DNA from: Giardia intestinalis
Taxonomy: Eukaryota
Reading direction: 5' to 3' (one strand)
Assembly (NCBI GenBank): GCA_000002435.2
Contig: CM018793.1
Length of the DNA stretch: 64,000 nucleotides
Shown here: piece after piece, positions 3,515-64,000 of the stretch
Numbering within the stretch: the first letter of the stretch is position 1
How the letters are laid out: each line of letters begins with the position of its first letter
Program-made: the position numbers and the translations under genes
The notes under the pieces: model-generated
The model's input: the letters and a program-made list of their open reading frames with translations, nothing else
What the model was told of the DNA's origin: nothing
Database searches by the model: none

Positions 3515-3563
3515 GTAATTGAAATGTGAATGCAGATTTTATTTCAGCTGCAACCTGAAGGGC

Positions 3564-3866
3564 TCAGTGGCCCGAAGCCTGGGGCGGCATGCACTGGAAG
3601 GCATCGAACCTTTGGATGTCGACGGTGTCTGCAGCGGGGGCAGGCTTGCGCTGACCACCGCGTGACTGGGGGATCTCCAGGTCCACCTCCTGGTGGAAGA
3701 GCTCGGCTGCCGGGATTTCCCGAAGGGGCGAGATCCGGGGGGCCTCGCTGTAGAGCGGGGCCTGCGCGACCGGGCCGAGGATGCCCCCGGGGCTGGGGGC
3801 GGGCGTGTCGGTAATCTTGTGGGGCGGCGGCTGCGGGGGCTGCGGCGCGCGGGTCTTCCGGGGCAT
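3564..3866 (-). CDS. hypothetical small proline-rich protein (about 100 aa) with extreme GC3 codon bias
   Basis: ATG at 3866..3864 and stop TGA at 3566..3564. About 88% of third codon positions are G/C (CCC, GCC, GAC, ATC, CTC...), typical of highly expressed Giardia genes. The other five frames are open only because the region is GC-rich. The track's upstream extension to 3929 starts on GTG. The ORF ends 49 bp upstream of the SMC4 ATG on the same strand. Confidence 0.45.
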   Translation of the reverse strand: MPRKTRAPQPPQPPPHKITDTPAPSPGGILGPVAQAPLYSEAPRISPLREIPAAELFHQEVDLEIPQSRGGQRKPAPAADTVDIQRFDAFQCMPPQASGH

Positions 3867-3929
3867 TTTCCAGCCACACAGCCCAAGCAGACACAGACAC
3901 GCCCGTCCTTCGCGCCCTCGCGCCCGCAC

Positions 3930-4003
3930 GTGCCCGTGGCGTAATTGGATAGCGCGCCTGACTACGGATCAGGAGGTTGCAGGTTCAAGTCCTGCCGGGT
4001 ACG
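3930..4003 (+). tRNA. tRNA-Arg (anticodon ACG)
   Basis: A manual cloverleaf fits. Acceptor GTGCCCG/CGGGTAC has one G-U pair. U8, D-stem GCGT/GCGC, and D-loop AATTGGATA are present. Anticodon stem CCTGA/TCAGG encloses loop CTACGGA with U33, anticodon ACG and G37. Variable loop AGGTT, T-stem GCAGG/CCTGC, and T-loop TTCAAGT follow. Discriminator is G and the length is 74 nt. Confidence 0.85.
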
Positions 4004-6557: not shown

Positions 6558-9500
6558 TTCGCTTTGTTAAGCACATCATCTATGCCTTGCTTGAGGTTGG
6601 CCAATGTACTATCGACTTGGTTACAATACCCCCTGACATTGCTATACATCGTGTTGGATGCAGGTGACGTATGGTCACATAACATCTCGAGTACGCTCGG
6701 GTCTACTACAGCACTGCTCCATGCAAGGTTCTGCTGGTCTGTCGTTGAGTGTCGTATTGCCCGCGCAGGCGTCTGGTCTTGGTGATACGGTGAATCGACG
6801 TCCACTATTGGATCTTCAAGGGCAGAGTAGTCCTCAGACTTCATCTGCCTATTAGATTGAAATGTGTGTTTGGTACCTTGCAAGTCGATCATGCTTGTCT
6901 CACCGAGTCGAGCCGCTGATGACAGCAGCCCATTGAATGGTCGCGTTGATGATTTGTCTGTTCCGCTTGTGACAGTAGAAAAAGAGGGATCATCTACCTC
7001 GTTGAACTCCCCTAACTTGCGCCGCACAGACTGTAGCAAGTCTCTGGCAGTGCCTTTTAAGTTAAGGTCATTTGATCCGCTATCTTCAAGCGTTTCTATA
7101 TCCTTGTTGCCAAGGGTATAGCTCTGATCCCTATCTTGGATAATCACTTGCACAGGCAACTGGTTCTTCTGGGTCTGAAGCATGCTCCCTGCGCTCTTCT
7201 CATAATTGGTCATGGTGGCTGCGTACGTATTACTATTTTCATACCCCATGTTATCTACTCCTGTCACCTTCGTTATCTGAGAGTCGGATTTCTCTGGCCG
7301 ATGCATCCCAATCTGTCTAGGTGTCTGGCTATTTGTACGAGGATTTTGAGGCGGTACTGATCCTGTTCTCGAGGCACTACGAGACGGAATAGGCAAGGAA
7401 GTAGAGTGCGAAGGCAGTTGAGTTCCAAGTGGTTGTGAGGTTGAGGCATGCAAGGACACCGATGGTTGTGGTAAGAAGGTAGATGTCGTTGTCTCTAGAT
7501 AGTTTCGTGAAAACTCAGGCTGTGAATGGGAATGAGCCTGCTTACCCTGGTGAGCATCTGGTGCAAGTATGGGTTCCTGCACAGAGCTTATCGTCAAGTC
7601 TTTTTCATTGGCTGCCAGTGGAAACCCTGGCTCTGGCTGGTAGGAGGCTCGATGGGGTACAGGATGAACACTGAGATGCAGCGGCTCTATCGCTGTAGAT
7701 GAAACGGAAATACTCTCGAGAGCACTGCGGCGCGCTAAGATAGACCTATATGTGTCTTGCGGTTCTGTGCTCTCTGGAAGCATGAAACTGACGCTAGGCT
7801 TTTGGGTATTATCAGAATTTGTATAGGGGGACGTGCTTCCGCCTTCGGAACCGCGAGCTGCAGAAACAGATGGTATTGTGATACGCAAGTTGCTTTGTGG
7901 GGCTACCAATGGGATTTGGTAAGGAAGTTGTTGGGCCAATGAACTGATAGAGTTATGAGATACTCCTGTTGCATCACCCATCGATGAATCACCTAAAGCC
8001 CTGCCTCTACTAGCAGTCGTGCTAATAGAGGGAGCAGTTGTCTGCTGAGACACCGGGGTTTTTGAAGAGGCGGAGACAAAGCGAACGCTATCAACGGGAT
8101 GTAGTGTTTGTGGAGGCTGGGGATAATGTAGTAGATCTTCCTCACACTCGCTAAGGTAGGCGCTCTTGATCACTGGGCGTGCTTCGGGGTGAGTATACTC
8201 AAGCTGGGGGTCAACTCCAAGCTTTTCTGCAATGAGATCAGAGCCATTGCTTGACGGTATTGAATCCCGGAGAGCGTATGTAGACGGATCAGCAGATGCT
8301 ACTTGACGATCCAAGGTATCGATAAGGTCCAGAAGAGTGTCTCTGGGAGCCCGCTCCAATTCAAGCAACTCTCTCCGTGGAGCAAGGCGGTCTGTGTTGA
8401 GGAGCATGTCAACCTTATTAACAAGCTCCTGCGTCTCTTCTGTGTCGCTGGTTGTGCTACGCATACTCACATGCTGAACTCCCACAGAGGTTTTAAGTGA
8501 TTGTGCTCTTGAAGCAGCAACGGACCTATCTACAGAGCATACTGTGCGCTTGGGTTGACTGACCTTGGATCCTGTTGCAGGTCTTTTAGGTTGCTGTAGT
8601 TGCTGACGCTGGAGCTGGCGCTGACGTAGCTGATACGGTACTCCGGTGCTTTTAACTTGCGTTTTGGGCGTTCTGGAAGTGGCTCGTGGTGTTTGTGTTT
8701 CCACAGTTATGTGCTCAATACAGCGTGTTGGAAGGGCCTTTGGGGCACTCCTAGACAATGGAGTCTGTACAGAAATTGATACTGGTCTTGAGGACACCTT
8801 TTGTTGATTAGTCAAAGGCTTAACTTGTTCATTGCTTGCAGTTTGCCTGCATTTAGGAGATTCTCCTGGGCGTGGATCATACACTCCGCGATCTTCACAA
8901 ACTTGGCACAATGTAGACTCCGGTTGGGGTGGTAGGTCAAACTCGGTGCTCCTGGCGCGTGCTGGCCCGATAGAACTGGTCCCAGGTTCCTGCTTCAACG
9001 GAAGGTCTGCAGCCCGTGACCCCCGTTCTTTCCTGGAGCAGCTTCTGACCGCCGTGATACCTTTCAAAAGGGCATGCTGAACCGCGTTTCCAATAAGCTG
9101 CTTGTTCCTCTTATCGGATTCTGAGCGTTTTCGAGCCTGTTCGCTCAGATTTACCACAAATCCATTTGCATCATTGATGGCCCCTCTATAGGTAACCGAG
9201 TCTTGCTTTTGAACCGCAGGATGGACCGACCGTCTTTCACGCAGATCGCCTTCTATGGCACTAGTAGCTTCGCGTACATGCACATCTGTGGTTGCTACTT
9301 CCTGGGCCATTTCTCGTGCAATGTGTTCAGCTATCTGCTGGGACTTCGAAGAGCTGACTGGAATAAATTCAATGTCCTCTGTTTGCACTGCTCTACCGGA
9401 TTGATCGAGGCGCTGAGATCTGGGCTTAAATGCAGAGATGGTAAACGTTGAACCTAATTCATGATCGGCATTATCGTTGACAGCAGGCGAAGGTGGCTCG

Positions 9501-47390: not shown

Positions 47391-47618
47391 CGACCACGAG
47401 TGCCTCGGCAGCTTAAGTAAAGGGTCAGAGCATTGTAAGACGGCAAACGTCACAAGGTAAGACGGGCGGCCGTCGTCCTCAAGATAGGTCGCTCCCAATC
47501 ATCATATCTCATACGAATGGATCGGAGGGCGATGAATTTCAAAGTCTAATTCCAATTCTAAATAGATGACTCCAGCTGTAACCTTTACAGCGTCACATGG
47601 GTCGGGTCTTGGAACAAT

Positions 47619-57989: not shown

Positions 57990-60797
57990 CTAGATATTCA
58001 GCGCCTCCATAGCCTTGGCGAGGACCAGATCTTCTTCTGGCGTCAGGGAACAGTTCGCAAGCTCTACCAACGAAGGGATATCATGTTCACCTTCGACAGA
58101 AGGGATTGAGCTAGTAGTCGGATTGTGGGAAACATAGGTGTAGCTAGGGGGTAGGAATCTCTCATGAATGTGCTGGTAAGTTGGAGGGATTTCCCCCTCT
58201 TCCAGATTAGAAAAGGTTTCTTCCCGCATGTCAGGCGTAAATAACCCTCCTGCAATATAGAATGGTTGGTTAGGGGACAGATAGGAGGACGCATGCTGTA
58301 AGGACCCGCCCATAATGGATGAGTCGCTGTGGTAGTGCTGAAAACGCTCTGGTGTGTCACTGACAGCGGAGACAGAGTGCAGGTCCATGATGTTATTTAC
58401 GCACGAGAGATAGCTGAGATCAGAAGGCGTTTTGGGAACAGGCTTGGCGACTATTGGAGCTCCGCTGGGACGAAACGGGTGGGCAAGAATGGCCTGAACT
58501 TCTTCCCGACTATCTATAGAGTGCTTTTCAGAGGGCTGTGCTTGATGCGGTGTAACCTTTTTTGAAACGTTAGGAACCTCCTGTTGAATGGAAGCAGAGT
58601 TGTAGGCAGGCGTTGATATAGGGGGTGACAAGTCCTTTACTGTTCGTGGAGGAAGCCGCCCCCTCGTAGAGTATGGAGTGGAGCTAGGTGTGCTGTCAAT
58701 ACATGCACTACTCTTCTCTCGTGAGAGTACGAAAAGGACTTCGTTATAATCTGTACTATCAGGGTCCTGAATCGTAAAGCCGCTAGCGTTATAATTCAGA
58801 TCTACTGTAGGTGCAATATGATTAGATGCATGGGCCAGATTATCAGCAATTGGTGTGTTAGAGGCAGGGGCTACTTCAGGGCGACGGATAGCTGTAACGA
58901 TTATCTCTTTAGCTTGCGGTCCTGACTCTTTTGCAGATGTTCTTTTCTGCGCTATAGTGTGCTGGAGGCGTGTTATTTGATGAGCATGGACCGGCTCGCC
59001 AGTACAGTTATCTTCGTATGAGTGTTGTGGAGCTGCTTGGTGAACAACTAGCTGAGCAGAGGGAAGTGATGCTTCCAGTGTGATATCTTTTGGAGCAATC
59101 CTGGTAAGAGAGCTTCTATGTAGATAGTTCAATTGCGGCTCTAAGGAAGGTGAGTCGCTGGGAGGAGGCTGTGCATCTACCTGCTTCAAAGCCTCAGAGG
59201 CACACTCTATTGGGTGATTACCTGATAATATCCCAGCCTTATGTTGGCATTTCCCACAAGGGGCGTATTTGGTTACATATAAAGGATAATTGGCAAGGTC
59301 CTTACCCAGAGATAGCCACTTTACCTTTTCATTGCTATCCTCAGAATAACTAGAATAGTAATATGACGAAGAGCTGCTCTCTGTACTAGAGGATCTTTTG
59401 GAGCAGGGCTTTTTGCTTGATCTTCTCTTAGACTTCGTGCTAACTTTTGGCTTGGCTGATGTCTGGGTCGTAGATATAGATTGATCAGTTTTAGAGTTAG
59501 ATTCCCTGTTAGAGTTAGAGAATGTAACCGACGAGAGATGCTCATTCGCTTGTCCAAAACATGGCGTCAAAACGCTGGCAGGTTGAGACAATCTGTTTTC
59601 TATATCATAAGCGTTTTTCATCTGTTGTGCTCGAGCAGCTATCTCTGTCATTTTATCTGGAGCCTTATCCAGCTTCTCTTTGTGTTGTCTTAGTATGGCT
59701 TTTTGAATGAGAACACTCAGCGGCTCTGGTTCCTGCTTATCGTTATAAGAATTTTTGACTGAAACAATCTCCACGATATCTGGTGATGTAGCGGATTCAT
59801 TTGGATTTAGTTCCCGCTGATCAATTGAAGGAGCTGACTTAGCAGATGGCATCATAGGTAGTAGCTCTGGTTTAGAAATGACAGGAATGATACCAGAAGG
59901 TACAATAGATGGAGAACTTGTGGCGCGATCGAAGTAACTCGGCTGAATAGCTGCAGGTGCTGGTATCCGATTGGCTAAAACTGTTCTTGTTATGCTCAGT
60001 ACTTGTCCAGCACCAGTGGGTAAAGGTACAGTTTTCGTGTCTCTATCTACATGTGCTATGACGCCAGGGAGATCTACACTATCATTGCTGAAGGACGATA
60101 AAGTCTCCTGTATCCCAGCCTTGTTCAAAGCCGGTGATATCGCATATGGAGGTGGAGTTTGATTGGGTGCATGTGGAAACATTCTACCAGGAGGTGTATG
60201 CGCGTTAAGGACCTTACATGAGGTCTCATTATTCTCGGCAAGACTTTCCCCCGCGGTGGGAAGATACTTAGCGGTAATTGGCCGCTGAAATTTCGTATCT
60301 AGTACATCGTGGTGATTGAGGTGAACAGAGGGGGCAATATCCTCTGGTATCTTGTCTGCTGGCTGACGCGTCTTGTTGTGAGGAACAGCAAGAAGCTCTA
60401 ATGGACCAGCTCTATAGTGTTGATGCCACGGAGGCAAGTTTCCAGCAGTTCTAGCTATTGAGATATCAACCACTGCATCCGATATCCCAGAATTGTCTTG
60501 AGTCATAGTGTGTCTGGGAGCGATGGGTGACATAGATGAAACTGTTCGTAATGCTTGTGAAACAGCACTTTGCGCAGAATTACTTACAAGATCTGCCTGT
60601 ATCCGTCTTGAAATTAGATCAGAGAGGGTTGTTGTGGGAGAACTATGGATGTCATGTAGATCGGGTTCTGGACTTGTCGGTTGGCCTGATAAGGAAATTG
60701 TGTGCACAACAGATGCTACCACAGGATCTGAAGATTCGCTGAGGGATGGAGTGTTCGTAAGCCTTGGCCGTGTGCGTGCTAAAAGTCTACTTGACAT
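57990..60797 (-). CDS. hypothetical S/T/P-rich protein (935 aa)
   Basis: ATG at 60797. Low-complexity Ser/Pro/Thr-rich composition throughout. Convergent with the previous gene across a 9-bp gap. Confidence 0.65.
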   Translation of the reverse strand: MSSRLLARTRPRLTNTPSLSESSDPVVASVVHTISLSGQPTSPEPDLHDIHSSPTTTLSDLISRRIQADLVSNSAQSAVSQALRTVSSMSPIAPRHTMTQDNSGISDAVVDISIARTAGNLPPWHQHYRAGPLELLAVPHNKTRQPADKIPEDIAPSVHLNHHDVLDTKFQRPITAKYLPTAGESLAENNETSCKVLNAHTPPGRMFPHAPNQTPPPYAISPALNKAGIQETLSSFSNDSVDLPGVIAHVDRDTKTVPLPTGAGQVLSITRTVLANRIPAPAAIQPSYFDRATSSPSIVPSGIIPVISKPELLPMMPSAKSAPSIDQRELNPNESATSPDIVEIVSVKNSYNDKQEPEPLSVLIQKAILRQHKEKLDKAPDKMTEIAARAQQMKNAYDIENRLSQPASVLTPCFGQANEHLSSVTFSNSNRESNSKTDQSISTTQTSAKPKVSTKSKRRSSKKPCSKRSSSTESSSSSYYYSSYSEDSNEKVKWLSLGKDLANYPLYVTKYAPCGKCQHKAGILSGNHPIECASEALKQVDAQPPPSDSPSLEPQLNYLHRSSLTRIAPKDITLEASLPSAQLVVHQAAPQHSYEDNCTGEPVHAHQITRLQHTIAQKRTSAKESGPQAKEIIVTAIRRPEVAPASNTPIADNLAHASNHIAPTVDLNYNASGFTIQDPDSTDYNEVLFVLSREKSSACIDSTPSSTPYSTRGRLPPRTVKDLSPPISTPAYNSASIQQEVPNVSKKVTPHQAQPSEKHSIDSREEVQAILAHPFRPSGAPIVAKPVPKTPSDLSYLSCVNNIMDLHSVSAVSDTPERFQHYHSDSSIMGGSLQHASSYLSPNQPFYIAGGLFTPDMREETFSNLEEGEIPPTYQHIHERFLPPSYTYVSHNPTTSSIPSVEGEHDIPSLVELANCSLTPEEDLVLAKAMEALNI

Positions 60798-61142
60798 TTT
60801 TTAGATATCCAGAGCAAGATGCCGAGAGGTATCTTAGAAGATGCAACTAGGTTACTGATGAATGGCTTAGGGGCTTGCGTGCGCCTGCTGAAAAGGATAG
60901 GTACTTGAAGCCGTCCAAATTTTCAAATTGAAAGAAATATTCTTGATGCTGACATACGTTTGCAACTTATAGAATAAGCGTGCACGAACATATTGATGAA
61001 GTAGAGGAACAACTGTGGCTAATGCCTTGTTGTGAAAACTAATCGGTATCGAACAGATGACTGGACAACAAAACCTATCGTACTTGGCAACCTATTCTCA
61101 CGCTAACCAGCTGGACACGTGACCAACAACACTGGCAGCAAC

Positions 61143-61237
61143 TTGGAGTGCCGGGAGTCGAACCCGGGTCGTAACCGCATACGTAGTTGATAGCCATGCC
61201 ATCAAAGGCCACTGTGCTCCCGCTGCACCACACCCCA
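61143..61237 (-). tRNA. tRNA-like gene, probably intron-containing (tentative anticodon UUG, Gln)
   Basis: On the minus strand the acceptor TGGGGTG/CACTCCA pairs fully with one G-U. U8, D-stem GTGC/GCAC, and D-loop AGCGGGA (A14, GG, A21) are present. Anticodon stem GTGGC pairs with GTTAC across a 25-nt insertion that follows loop CTTTGA (U33, TTG, A37). The insert contains TCAAC, complementary to the anticodon. T-stem CCGGG/CCCGG and T-loop TTCGACT are present; discriminator is A. The variable loop is only 3 nt (GAC), so this is not fully canonical. Confidence 0.4.
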
Positions 61238-61289
61238 CGGGGAAGGGCAGCAGCGTAAACGTGTGTGTGTCGTACTTGGAAGTGGAGGG

Positions 61290-61620
61290 ACGCGGATAGC
61301 ACTGGTTGCTCAGACGTGGGGGCTCACCGAGGGTAGCTGGCCAGCCCTCATCGCCCCAGCTCCCCCCACCTCACTCACCGGCCGGCCTGCTGTGGAACCC
61401 AGGTGACCGCGACTGTAGAGCACTGCCCGGGACACAGCCGGACGGACACCGAGGGGCCCAGCCAGCGGAGGGCCCGATGGCAGACGGGGCATCTAAAAAG
61501 GACGGCGACCAGAGCTTCACCCACCGTGAAGGGAGACCAAGGAGAGGCGCCACCGGTAGAGCAGAGGGTCTGCGAGAGGACCCGAACCCCTAAAGGACCG
61601 ACGTGCACACTCGGACCGAG
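61290..61620. other. GC-rich (about 65-70% GC) non-coding island upstream of the tRNA-like gene; candidate structured ncRNA or regulatory region
   Basis: No frame shows codon bias and all track ORFs here start on GTG. Palindromic GC segments are present (ccggccggcc; cccgggacacagccggacgg). It lies in a 1.28-kb gene-free spacer between two divergent genes. Confidence 0.3.
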
Positions 61621-62100
61621 TACACCTCTGCGGAGCGACCAGGGAAGGTGCCAGGTTTTAGATATACTAAAAGAGAGGAGCTCCTCGTTATATCATCCAC
61701 AACCAGCCCTCGTCTCCGGACACGACCACAGGAGCGAGACTTACTCCTGGGATTTCTGGGTGCCCCTACAGGTAATCCCAACAGCACAGCGCTTCTTCCC
61801 GTCCAGGCAGCTCTTGTGAAGAGCATCGGTCCAGTTTCATAGCAGTGGGTGCATTCATTATTTGAGTGGACCATTCGTGGGGTGATGGCTACTGTCGTAA
61901 GCACCGGTGATGTGCGAGGGGCCGTTCTTGAGATGCCACAACGCCCATTCTCTCCTTGGTCCCTAGAGACACCACACACAGGAGAGGCCGCTAGGACACC
62001 AGAGATCCGCTACACCGGGGTAAGCCTGTAGGGTGCACATTATCCTCACTCACCACGTGGCAGCGTCGCCTGGTGTTGCGTGCTCTATGGGCTGCCGGCA

Positions 62101-63948
62101 ATGTTCGAGAAAATCATCTTCGGAATCGCCATCCTGCAAGTGGTATGGGCAGCAACGACATGCACAGAGGCTAGCAGTGACCCGCAAACAGGACAGTGCG
62201 CAACAGGAAAGTGCGACGTCTGGATTGGGGGCTCAAACTTCTGCTCCCAGTGCTCGACAGCAGCAGAGCATCTTATCAATGGAAAATGTGTGCCTGAAGG
62301 TGAAGACACTGAAGGAAAATGTACAGCAAAGAATGATGGCACATGTGAATCTTGTAAAGCCGGCTTTTTCCTGCACAGAGGAGGGTGCTACGAGATGGGA
62401 AGCGATATCGGGCTCCTTGTGTGCAACGATAGAACTGCCACGGCTGATAAGGATGGAATATGCATAGCTTGCCACGACGGGTACTTCAAGAATCCTGCAT
62501 CTGACGCTGATAAAACGAAGGAGTCCTGTATTGCATGCAACAACACGGCCGGCGTGGATCATAATAAGGGGGTTCAGAACTGTGCGACGTGCGACGCCCC
62601 GAAAACTCCCGGACAAAGCAGTGCAGAACAGACGGCCACATGTAAAAGCTGTGTGGACGGATACTATGGCACTACAAGCTGTCAGCAGTGCCATGCAGAT
62701 TGTAGAACGTGCACCGGCAACGGTGAGGATAAATGCACCTCCTGCAAGGATACTGGTAAGCAATACTTCAAAGAAGGGGCCAATAGCGACGGGACAGGCA
62801 CGTGTGTTGACGAAAACGGATGTGGTAACACACACTTCCCAATAGCAGAGGACAAAAAGTGCCATCTCTGCGGTAGTGTCAGTGAGGGCGGTGTGGCCGA
62901 CTGCAAGACGTGCTCAAAGACTGGAGATTCCGTTAAGTGTCTTACCTGCGAGGGTACTAAAAAACCCAATGAAGCCGGAACAGGCTGCTTTGTGTGTCCC
63001 ATGGAGCATTGCGAAAAGTGCAGTAAGGACAACGTCTGCGAAGCTTGCGGATCAGAAAAGAAGCTGAGCCCCTTGGGAGACGCGTGCTTAGATGCCTGTC
63101 CCGCGGGAACTCGCACTGACGCTAACGTTTGTAATCTGTGCCACGAATCGTGTGCAAGCTGTAGCACTAACGCAGAAGCGTCGTGCACGGCCTGCTATCC
63201 AGGGTATGTGTTGAATCGGTCATCTGATGACACAGGAACGTGCATAAAAGAGTGCACGGGAGACTTTATGGCCCACTGCAAGGCCGACGGCTGCTCACTG
63301 AACGTCGGAGGCTCGAAGTACTGCGATCAGTGCGAGGAGGGGTACGCCCCAGTCGACGGCGTTTGCACATCCATACCTGCAGCAGCGAGGGATGCCTCCG
63401 GATGTAAGGCAAGTGGCGGGAAATGCACTGAGTGTGGAGCAAACTACGCTCTGTTATCGGGCGGATGCTACAACACACAGAAGCTTCCTGGTAGCTCTGT
63501 GTGTACGGCTGCACAGAATAAGGGACAATGCCAAACGTGTGCCAATGGACAAAGCCCAGCTGGAAGAAAATGTCCGGCGTGTACTGAAGGATGTGTGAAG
63601 TGTGCGGGTAGTAAGGAAACCTGCACAGATTGCTTAGCAGGGTATTACAAAGATGCCGGTGATAAATGCTTCAAATGCACGGATAGTGATAAGGCTAGCT
63701 CTAATGCAATAACTGGTGTAGAAAACTGCATAAGCTGTGCCCCGCCAGCTGGTGGCAATGGCCCTGTCACCTGTTACGTAACGCAACAAAAGGCTGACGA
63801 TGGCACCGGCGGAGATACTGGAGGAGACAGCACGAACAGGAGCGGCCTCAGCACGGGGGCCATAGCAGGGATCTCCGTCGCTGTCATCGTCGTGGGGGGC
63901 CTCGTGGGCTTCCTCTGCTGGTGGTTCATATGTAGAGGGAAGGCGTGA
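62101..63948 (+). CDS. vsp: variant-specific surface protein (VSP)
   Basis: First ATG at 62101 gives signal peptide MFEKIIFGIAILQVVWA; the track start at 62080 is GTG. More than 25 CXXC motifs and two GGCY motifs are present. C-terminal TM AIAGISVAVIVVGGLVGFLCWWFI is followed by the invariant cytoplasmic tail CRGKA and a stop. Confidence 0.9.
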   Translation: MFEKIIFGIAILQVVWAATTCTEASSDPQTGQCATGKCDVWIGGSNFCSQCSTAAEHLINGKCVPEGEDTEGKCTAKNDGTCESCKAGFFLHRGGCYEMGSDIGLLVCNDRTATADKDGICIACHDGYFKNPASDADKTKESCIACNNTAGVDHNKGVQNCATCDAPKTPGQSSAEQTATCKSCVDGYYGTTSCQQCHADCRTCTGNGEDKCTSCKDTGKQYFKEGANSDGTGTCVDENGCGNTHFPIAEDKKCHLCGSVSEGGVADCKTCSKTGDSVKCLTCEGTKKPNEAGTGCFVCPMEHCEKCSKDNVCEACGSEKKLSPLGDACLDACPAGTRTDANVCNLCHESCASCSTNAEASCTACYPGYVLNRSSDDTGTCIKECTGDFMAHCKADGCSLNVGGSKYCDQCEEGYAPVDGVCTSIPAAARDASGCKASGGKCTECGANYALLSGGCYNTQKLPGSSVCTAAQNKGQCQTCANGQSPAGRKCPACTEGCVKCAGSKETCTDCLAGYYKDAGDKCFKCTDSDKASSNAITGVENCISCAPPAGGNGPVTCYVTQQKADDGTGGDTGGDSTNRSGLSTGAIAGISVAVIVVGGLVGFLCWWFICRGKA

Positions 63949-63962: not shown

Positions 63963-64000
63963 GCGTCACCGTATATGGCTTATTGCACTATGCTGTTGGG

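Follow-up and report, generated by a model that had tools for sequence, protein, structure and literature searches.

The spacer at positions 60798-62100 of the window (the whole stretch of 64,000 nucleotides analysed here, which comes from Giardia intestinalis WB) is, with a probability that we put at roughly 80%, a composite of ordinary parts, located at the junction between a conserved block of synteny and a VSP cassette that varies. Because it consists of a catalogued intron-containing tRNA-Gln gene and one non-coding arm of an inverted repeat, it does not represent a novel RNA element linked to tRNA. Overall, the spacer is an ordinary finding, and its sole mildly new element is a VSP cassette that is bracketed by repeats and is apparently invertible.

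The preliminary description of this DNA, made from the letters alone, was right to single out a 1.3-kb gene-free spacer upstream of a VSP gene: no CDS is annotated in 60798-62100, and at 1303 nt this is the largest ORF-free gap of the window, the runner-up having ~336 nt. The flanking genes, GL50803_002947 (KAE8306112) and the gene for VSP AS8 (KAE8306113), carry consecutive accessions. The first part of the spacer (60798..61142, with no strand assigned) is unique intergenic DNA as delimited by identity comparisons, and it comprises the GL50803_002947 5' region together with the 3' trailer that belongs to the tRNA. Over this part, WB (A1) and DH (A2) are ~98-100% identical, identity to the more distant isolate L013 is 75%, and no Rfam match is found.

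Beside this unique DNA lies the tRNA-Gln(UUG) gene (61143..61237, minus strand), with a 25-nt intron in a pre-tRNA of 95 nt. An Rfam search gives a match to RF00005 at this position and on this strand; it scores 43.2 bits, where the gathering score is 29, covers the full length of the model (1-71) and has E=7.7e-6 for the whole window. ARAGORN also detects a tRNA at 61143-61237 on the minus strand, and a B box, GGTTCGACTCC, can be read directly from the sequence. Together with the 25-nt insert and the pairing of UUG with CAA described below, these results bear out the earlier proposal of an intron-containing tRNA-like gene.

Which amino acid does this tRNA carry? The anticodon loop reads C-U-U-U-G-A at 61207-61202 (minus strand), with U33, the anticodon UUG (61203..61205, minus strand, placed by sequence reading and by the Rfam alignment) and the purine A37, and the gene is therefore assigned as tRNA-Gln(UUG). 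ARAGORN returns Gln(ttg) for the spliced form in either of the two intron registers considered below; for the unspliced gene it returns inconsistent isotypes, His or Ala with a 4-nt intron, and these calls are artefacts caused by the insert. Readings as a selenocysteine, Leu(CAA) or Tyr(GUA) tRNA, or as a class II tRNA with a long variable arm, were tried manually and rejected because they are without U33 or without a closing stem. Additionally, a comparison of the 3' half of the tRNA with JGI metagenome contigs gave two matches, both of which are chance matches to unrelated DNA and not tRNAs.

Exact copies of the tRNA are present in DH (L015 9561-9655) and in the isolate assembly ERZ28528424 (L020 721-815), and in assemblage B (L011) an identical tRNA 3' end is found at the syntenic site, upstream of the ortholog. 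Nine independent WB short-read contigs end at one base inside the tRNA (window position 61154), as expected for a repeated gene, and these breaks within the gene support its multi-copy status. Published tRNAscan-SE counts for WB list introns in Gln-TTG x4 and in Tyr-GTA x1 (Franzen et al. 2009, PMC2723961 Text S1; Jerlstrom-Hultqvist et al. 2010, PMC3091692). In that published output the WB Gln-TTG genes are classed as intron-containing, with three of the four functional and one flagged as a pseudogene, and the counts for other isolates are six to seven Gln-TTG genes with an intron plus one without in GS, and five intron-containing tRNAs in P15 (PMC2723961; PMC3091692). The gene at 61143-61237 is almost certainly one of the four published WB Gln-TTG copies, a match inferred from tables that give counts and not coordinates.

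Canonical eukaryotic pre-tRNA introns sit at position 37/38, pair with the anticodon and are excised by the Sen endonuclease and a ligase. For tRNA-Gln, two registers come into consideration, each of which would remove 25 nt: the canonical 37/38 register (61177..61201, minus strand), predicted from sequence and folding and from ARAGORN, and an alternative register (61170-61194, minus strand) that follows from the Rfam alignment, which puts the insert in the variable loop. Removal of 61177-61201 creates the stem GUGGC/GUUAC, with three Watson-Crick and two G-U pairs among its 5 bp, and a CUUUGAG loop; in the Rfam register, a G-G mismatch is present. The calculated energy of the pre-tRNA is -34.4 kcal/mol in the canonical register versus -26.5 in the Rfam register, and ARAGORN scores the spliced forms at 120.0 and 116.6, respectively. 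Both registers leave an unusually short variable loop of 3 nt (GAC). In the minimum-energy fold and in the centroid fold alike, an 8-bp helix (UUGAUGGC/GCUAUCAA) includes the pairing of the anticodon UUG with CAA of the intron. The splice junction is predicted to fall between ...GGCCUUUGA and GGUUACGACC... (CUUUGA and GGUUAC) in the canonical register, and between ...UUUGAUGGCAUG and ACCCGGG... in the alternative one; inspection by eye found no bulge-helix-bulge motif near either. On these models, a 25-nt intron at the canonical 37/38 position is most likely.

Since all of the counted WB Gln-TTG genes are intron-bearing, splicing would be needed to read CAA codons, and from the same counts we infer that Giardia cells transcribe and splice this tRNA-Gln. 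Transcription of the minus-strand copy would be by RNA polymerase III from internal A and B boxes, and the tRNA splicing endonuclease and ligase would have to excise the 25-nt intron from tRNA-Gln(UUG).

The VSP side of the spacer is organized around a repeat. Arm 1 (61341..61792, ~450 nt, plus strand) is one side of an imperfect inverted repeat around the VSP gene and a member of a VSP-flanking repeat family, as recognized from an inverted copy in DH and from further copies. It is followed by the VSP-proximal upstream region (61793..62100, plus strand), which lies inside the cassette, is 94-100% identical between WB and DH despite their differing VSP bodies, and ends in the initiator CAATGTT (62099-62105). 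The initiator consensus published for VSP genes is PyAatgTT (Adam et al. 2010, PMC2996952), which CAATGTT at the start of VSP AS8 matches on reading of the sequence. The VSP AS8 gene itself (62101..63948, plus strand) encodes 615 aa with a CRGKA tail and is an exact match to KAE8306113.1 / AAN52111.1; a search with its N-terminus toward other VSP-side contigs found distant VSPs only. Arm 2 begins 37 nt past the VSP stop codon and is cut by the window end, such that 16 nt of it are available (63985..64000, minus strand), an inverted copy of 61777-61792 in which 14 of the 16 positions are complementary to arm 1. The short sequence after the stop codon and the start of this arm are collinear with the DH sequence downstream of its VSP. 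In other words, because an inverted partner follows 37 nt after the stop codon, the VSP gene and ~310 nt of its own upstream sequence are bracketed by inverted repeats, and in WB as in DH only one VSP lies between the arms.

Outside WB, the DH arms are found at L015 6180-6745 (the inverted copy, 72-93% complementary to arm 1) and 9000-9457, on a contig of a 454-era assembly. This contig is joined to the GL50803_15977 ortholog in a way that disagrees with the order of genes in WB, which would reflect either a real inversion of ~88 genes relative to DH or a chimeric DH contig. Further arm copies are present on contigs L020 and L022, and both DH arm 2 and the L022 copy adjoin VSP 3' ends in surroundings that contain no tRNA. 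The fall of A1/A2 identity from ~100% to 46-88% coincides exactly with the outer arm boundary (~61341). From 61341 onward, the GC-rich island that adjoins the tRNA is, judged by these copies, best assigned to a family of repeats associated with VSP genes and not with tRNAs.

Have the arms exchanged sequence with one another? Segment by segment, identity switches partners among WB arm 1, DH arm 1 and DH arm 2, giving patchwork copies, and the fact that the copies are mosaics of each other points to gene conversion among them. The L020 copy is 98-100% like DH arm 1 up to ~61526 and arm-2-like thereafter, and continues into a VSP 3' end in reverse-complement orientation. The cassette thus appears in the opposite orientation, with a crossover within the arm, in one assemblage-A isolate assembly, where it is represented by one SPAdes contig from one sample (NODE_294, ERZ28528424). 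A chimeric join through the repeat is an unlikely source of this contig because the arms are only 72-93% identical. The arms may accordingly be viewed as putative substrates for homologous recombination, and an inversion through a crossover inside an arm could have produced the orientation found in this isolate. In an invertible DNA switch (phase variation through inversion of a promoter or gene), the two orientations differ in what is expressed; here the bracketed segment includes the VSP initiator and ~310 nt of upstream sequence, which an inversion would carry along with the gene.

A more far-reaching proposal is that the diverged inverted repeats are active recombination substrates that flip a whole VSP expression cassette beside a Pol III-transcribed tRNA-Gln gene and swap patches with other VSP-flanking copies. 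Orientation with respect to the adjacent transcription units of the tRNA and GL50803_002947 could then alter read-through or antisense transcription and feed into RNAi-based and epigenetic VSP choice, and copies elsewhere might underlie larger rearrangements that distinguish sub-assemblages A1 and A2. We consider this proposal unlikely as a whole. Could the arms instead be what is left of an ancient inverted duplication at a VSP locus, i.e. a head-to-head or tail-to-tail pair minus one gene, with no ongoing recombination, such that the flipped isolate represents an assembly artefact or a different ancestral arrangement? In WB, VSP genes do occur as inverted pairs, and the similarity of their duplicated flanks ends abruptly at 139-729 bp from the ORF (Adam et al. 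2010, PMC2996952). Additionally, the arm normally abuts VSP 3' ends (DH arm 2, L020, L022), from which it follows that arm 1 could once have flanked the 3' side of a partner gene since lost, and only a single contig shows the flipped orientation. However, the mosaic formed by WB arm 1 and the two DH arms, with its changes of partner, requires exchanges more recent than the separation of A1 and A2, and the switch in L020 from DH arm 1 to arm 2 and on into a VSP 3' end is the expected product of a crossover. A relic is, in our judgment, quite improbable.

The preliminary description had reported a GC-rich segment beside the tRNA and one other such island in the window, and both are there: GC content is 0.66-0.69 at 61200-61600, and the sole comparable island, at 3601-3900, has 0.70. 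The island beside tRNA-Gln is made up of ~100 nt of unique tRNA 5' flank and the outer ~300 nt of the repeat arm (61341-61792). Its left part, the GC-rich flank (61238..61340, no strand assigned, delimited by identity comparisons), is 100% identical across WB, DH and ERZ, and it is placed outside the repeat because it is only ~46-53% identical to DH arm 2.

Might the island nevertheless be a novel structured ncRNA, or an element that is associated with Pol III and accompanies tRNA genes, as was first suggested? It is GC-rich and T-poor and adjoins a tRNA, a 24-nt block (GGTGACCGCGACTGTAGAGC.CTG) is invariant in five copies, and a similar GACACA(C/G)ACACG motif occurs upstream of both tRNAs of the window. 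On the other hand, folding of 61290-61620 predicts a structure that is less stable than those of dinucleotide shuffles on both strands (z=+2.0 for the plus strand and +1.3 for the minus strand), and RNAalifold on five copies of the island core yields a covariation term of +1.4 (a positive value is a penalty), with compensatory change in two of 37 pairs; the description of the island as structured does not survive these calculations. Apart from the tRNA, no Rfam family is matched in 60700-62200 with a cutoff of E<=10, and none over the two DH arms with a cutoff of E<=1. The 12-nt motif for 3' end processing of Giardia ncRNAs is HCMTTYHHTHAA (Hudson et al. 2012, PMC3510501), and the spacer contains no exact match to it, with the sole 1-mismatch match falling within the tRNA; as a positive control, the same motif search recovered the match beside GlsR13 (47413-47424). 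Other copies of the repeat, as noted, have no tRNA nearby. A telomerase-RNA template was also considered for the island and dropped, inspection by eye giving just 6-nt matches to CCCTAA or CCCTAC.

The second island, which would be required for a recurring unit of tRNA and GC island, is a protein gene dissimilar to the island beside tRNA-Gln. It is the CDS of GL50803_0060537 (3567..3866, minus strand), a hypothetical protein of 100 aa with an exact match to KAE8306082.1, and it is divergent from tRNA-Arg(ACG) (3930-4003, plus strand). GC by codon position is 0.74/0.55/0.87, the codon score of 0.153 is in the coding range, DH has an ortholog (DHA2_150500), and more distant isolates show 89-90% protein identity with an in-frame one-codon indel. 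This gene fully explains the 'other GC island' at 3540-3929; it is conserved, it lies on the strand opposite to tRNA-Arg, and it is unrelated to the tRNA-Gln island, with no sequence similarity between the two. The claim that the spacer has the same layout as the tRNA-Arg locus consequently falls, the likeness being superficial, and of the forms proposed for the recurring unit, the Pol III element and the ncRNA are not supported, while the small GC3-rich gene applies at the tRNA-Arg locus only. A structured or Pol III-associated RNA in the island is thus very unlikely. By these folding models the island is not a structured RNA, and its GC-richness would be a property of the repeat and the tRNA flank rather than the mark of an RNA gene.

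The island could also be thought of as a present or recent small protein gene (a GC-rich ORF or a pseudogene, e.g. a decayed member of the VSP or another family), given several open frames of 60-160 aa, a plus-strand frame at 61300-61590 that is purine-rich at the first codon position, and a DH open frame upstream of the VSP that is annotated as a 92-aa N-terminal extension, but this is extremely improbable: GC by codon position is 0.8/0.67/0.7 or flatter, without the GC3 enrichment of the gene beside tRNA-Arg; codon log-odds are ~0 or negative in the island frames; A1 and A2 differ by indels of 1, 2 and 11 nt, and DH arm 2 has an insertion of ~90 nt, indels between isolates that are not multiples of three arguing against coding; six spacer ORFs have no Pfam match; and the island ORFs are unannotated, uncalled and absent from a collection of 15 billion proteins. 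An exhaustive HMMER search against 1.84 billion representatives gave no real protein family, only two weak matches to short unnamed ORFs, of which the traceable one (P0042) sits on another arm copy. With no sign of coding in any of these comparisons, we take the island to be non-coding.

This reading of the spacer has several consequences for annotation. The tRNA should be recorded as the known intron-containing tRNA-Gln(UUG), the GC island beside it warrants annotation neither as an RNA gene nor as a protein gene, and the island at tRNA-Arg is GL50803_0060537. Wider interest is limited to the diversification of the VSP repertoire, for which the locus offers a single VSP, mosaic inverted repeats and, apparently, a cassette that differs in orientation from one assemblage-A isolate to another. 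Should this arrangement be confirmed by long reads, it would provide a PCR-testable locus for homologous recombination or gene conversion around antigen genes and would help to explain why Giardia assemblies break at VSP-flanking repeats.

How do these parts compare with known systems? The tRNA shares with the published intron-containing tRNA-Gln(TTG) genes of Giardia intestinalis its organism, its anticodon, an insert in the anticodon arm and its multi-copy status, with no substantive difference. Like canonical eukaryotic pre-tRNAs with introns, it has a 25-nt insert, an 8-bp helix between anticodon and intron, and intact acceptor, D and T arms; unlike them, it would have its 5' splice site within a helix rather than in a loop, and a variable loop of only 3 nt after splicing. 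The AS8 locus shows the inverted copies and abrupt divergence points that characterize VSP-flanking inverted duplications, and it shares with the inverted VSP pairs of WB (PMC2996952) an inverted duplication, divergence that sets in abruptly a few hundred bp away from the ORF, and breaks in assemblies at the repeats. In contrast to those pairs, it does not have two identical VSP ORFs; only non-coding flanks are duplicated, with one VSP between them, the two arms have diverged (72-93%) and are mosaic, and the cassette is apparently flipped in one isolate.

The 1303-nt spacer at 60798–62100 is the longest gene-free gap in the window, as had been claimed from the sequence; on a crude ORF map, the runner-up is ∼336 nt. 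It is bordered by GL50803_002947 (57990–60797, minus strand), whose 935-aa ORF is KAE8306112.1 of Giardia intestinalis WB (assemblage A1), and by the VSP AS8 gene (62101–63948, plus strand), whose ORF is KAE8306113.1 of the same isolate. Both genes map to a 4.02-Mb WB chromosome, and since the two accessions are consecutive, no CDS is annotated between them. The preliminary description of this spacer was largely right, although it erred in calling the GC-rich island at 61290–61620 structured and in equating the layout with that of the tRNA-Arg locus; the island combines a tRNA flank with a non-coding repeat arm associated with VSP genes. As a side observation on the bordering gene, the GL50803_002947 ortholog is called at 847 aa, not 935, in several assemblage-A isolates (contigs L020, 1216–1425, and L021, 415–624), with a 68-aa opposite-strand ORF called over the N-terminal region absent from the shorter calls; a real frameshift or stop, or the gene caller alone, may account for this.

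The proposed tRNA-like element with a 25-nt insert is detected as a tRNA by both ARAGORN and Rfam (RF00005), as a 95-nt gene at 61143–61237 on the minus strand that scores 43.2 bits with Rfam (gathering score 29; E=7.7e-6). It has a canonical 7-bp acceptor stem, D arm (GUGC/GCAC) and T arm, and a perfect B box, GGTTCGACTCC. The anticodon loop, C-U-U-U-G-A, lies 3′ of the anticodon-stem strand GUGGC, and its U33 and A37 give the anticodon UUG and thus the isotype Gln; the His(atg) label and the Ala(tgc) label with a 4-nt intron that ARAGORN assigns to the unspliced gene are spurious, caused by the insert. The D and T arms are separated by 45 nt versus the usual ∼21, leaving a surplus of ∼25 nt that can be removed in two registers. 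The Rfam alignment places the insert in the variable loop (61170–61194), with a GUGGC/GGCAU stem that contains a G-G mismatch, whereas removal at the canonical 37/38 position (61177–61201) yields a GUGGC/GUUAC stem with three Watson–Crick and two G-U pairs. The canonical register is the more stable one under constrained folding (−34.4 versus −26.5 kcal/mol), and its spliced product has a slight edge in ARAGORN score (120.0 versus 116.6). Because both registers leave an unusual 3-nt variable loop, we take the exact insert boundaries as inferred. The suggested complementarity between insert and anticodon is borne out: in the minimum-energy fold, the anticodon pairs with a CAA of the insert within an 8-bp helix.

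This tRNA-Gln is an already catalogued gene type and is not new. In WB, tRNAscan-SE found five intron-containing tRNAs, four Gln-TTG and one Tyr-GTA; for isolate GS, the tables list six assembled Gln-TTG genes plus one in unassembled reads, and in the main text seven copies have an intron and one lacks it (Franzen et al. 2009, PMC2723961). Isolate P15 has five tRNAs with introns (PMC3091692). The WB counts of three standard and four intron-bearing Gln-TTG genes (PMC2723961) imply that all carry the intron and that one was flagged as a pseudogene. In nine independent sequencing runs of WB, the contigs end at the identical base within the tRNA, window position 61154, which fits a multi-copy gene. 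Exact copies are present in DH, an assemblage A2 isolate, and in isolate ERZ28528424. The assemblage B contig that lies upstream of the GL50803_002947 ortholog starts with a matching tRNA 3′ end (CGACTCCCGGCACTCCAAGTTGC) and then diverges, so the syntenic position is common to A and B.

What, then, is the GC-rich island? It is no protein-coding gene: GC3 is not enriched in any frame, codon log-odds trained on the long genes of the window are ∼0 versus 0.15–0.18 for real genes, and WB and DH differ by indels of 1, 2 and 11 nt. Spacer ORFs have zero Pfam matches, and none of ten candidates was found by exact look-up in a collection of 15 billion proteins. An exhaustive HMMER search with a 160-aa open frame returned two weak matches to short ORFs (E about 1e-7), one of which (P0042) traces to a different copy of the repeat DNA described below and the other of which (P0043) is not placeable on any contig. 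Negatives from a separate, word-indexed protein search are untrustworthy for GC-rich or low-complexity queries, since it failed to return an identical 100-aa protein placed within a long query of low complexity and, given the VSP N-terminus, did not return the VSP AS8 cluster representative. Nor is the island a structured RNA: its fold on either strand is less stable than those of dinucleotide-preserving shuffles (z=+2.01 and +1.26), and the covariation term of an RNAalifold consensus built from the best-conserved core in five copies is positive, a penalty. A permissive Rfam scan of 60700–62200 (E≤10) returned the tRNA alone, besides a chance Y-RNA-like match overlapping it, and the homologous DH region including both arms gave nothing beyond the tRNA. 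The 12-nt 3′ processing motif common to Giardia ncRNAs, HCMTTYHHTHAA (Hudson 2012), is absent from the spacer; as a positive control, the search recovered the copy CCCTTTACTTAA (47413–47424, minus strand) overlapping the 3′ end of snoRNA GlsR13 (47423–47522; Rfam, 129.5 bits), as published. Finally, the island at 3540–3929 beside tRNA-Arg (3930–4003, Rfam) bears no similarity to the one at 61290–61620 and is the minus-strand ORF 3567–3866 (GC by codon position 0.74/0.55/0.87; codon score 0.153), identical to GL50803_0060537 (KAE8306082.1), for which there is an ortholog in DH and, in more distant isolates, 89–90% protein identity and a one-codon in-frame indel, so that the two loci share merely something GC-rich 5′ of a tRNA.

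In the 5′ flanks of both window tRNAs, a GACACA(C/G)ACACG motif is followed by a C-rich stretch, at 61260–61271 (minus strand; −34 to −23) for tRNA-Gln and at 3890–3901 (plus strand; −40 to −29) for tRNA-Arg; with two loci, the motif may be a coincidence or an upstream Pol III element.

The repeat emerges when the whole spacer is compared with the DH contig that spans it. Identity is about 99–100% from the gene to 61350, tRNA included, 46–88% with indels over 61351–61750, and 94–100% over 61750–62150, beyond which the VSP bodies differ. BLAST against the DH locus places an inverted copy of 61341–61790 beyond the DH VSP, beginning about 35–40 nt 3′ of its stop codon. The same layout is present in WB, as the window closes with 16 nt (63985–64000), 37 nt past the stop codon of VSP AS8, that match 61777–61792 in reverse complement, and the 37 nt in between align collinearly with DH. 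The outer edge of arm 1, the tRNA-side copy, is at about 61341, the point where A1/A2 identity falls; outside it, 61238–61340 is 100% identical between WB and DH and only 46% identical to arm 2, the copy beyond the VSP. By these alignments, the island is unique tRNA 5′ flank joined to the GC-rich outer portion of a repeat arm.

For the enclosed genes, the syntenic VSP bodies (WB 62150–63750; DH contig L015, 6950–8850) share a mere 40–70% identity, and the 5′ 50 nt, the upstream 350 nt and the 3′ 250 nt share 84–100%, a pattern consistent with cassette replacement or rapid ectodomain diversification. The VSP AS8 frame is open from 61843 (61843–63945) save for one TAG (62029–62031); the homologous DH frame (L015, 6781–8904) is unbroken, and its VSP is annotated at 707 aa from the equivalent of 61885. 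Given the initiator CAATGTT and signal peptide MFEKIIFGIAILQVVWA at 62101, the N-terminal extension in DH probably reflects misannotation.

The arms are mosaic, and the closest partner among WB arm 1, DH arm 1 and DH arm 2 switches segment by segment: WB is closer to DH arm 1 (92%) than to arm 2 (60%) over 61471–61560, the DH arms are closer to each other (72%) than to WB (48–53%) over 61561–61620, and WB is closer to DH arm 2 (78%) than to arm 1 (61%) over 61621–61700. An assemblage-A contig (ERZ28528424 NODE_294, L020) has the GL50803_002947 ortholog, an identical tRNA and the same unique flank, followed by an arm that is 98–100% DH-arm-1-like to about 61526 and arm-2-like thereafter, directly adjoined by a VSP 3′ end in reverse complement. 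This junction is the product expected of cassette inversion via a crossover within the arms; because one contig alone supports the inversion, we grade it as probable, not proven. In the same sample, NODE_7612 (L022; at about 2.4 times the coverage) has an arm copy adjacent to another VSP's 3′ end, with no tRNA, from which it follows that the repeat moves with VSP genes and not with tRNAs.

Outside its arm, L022 has 72 nt (1132–1203) with 92% identity to positions 2–73 of another contig, L018, which are the end of a unique-looking GC-rich region upstream of GL50803_15977, where WB contigs stop; the repeat family thus seems to extend past the arm. Short-read contigs from WB and A2 (about 30 read) all end 310–430 nt upstream of that gene. 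Its ortholog comes after arm 2 in DH (L015, 2863–6800); in WB, it is KAE8306024, 89 CDS accessions from VSP AS8 and on the opposite side of the window. Either an A1/A2 inversion of about 88 genes has its breakpoint at the repeat, or the DH contig is chimeric there.

The novelty here is modest: a VSP cassette bracketed by repeats, mosaic arms, and one apparently flipped instance. In WB, inverted VSP pairs are documented with flanking duplications that end abruptly where the copies diverge, and such repeats were noted to break assemblies (Adam et al. 2010, PMC2996952). The arrangement described here is like those pairs in kind but differs in that the flanks alone are duplicated, with a single VSP inside.
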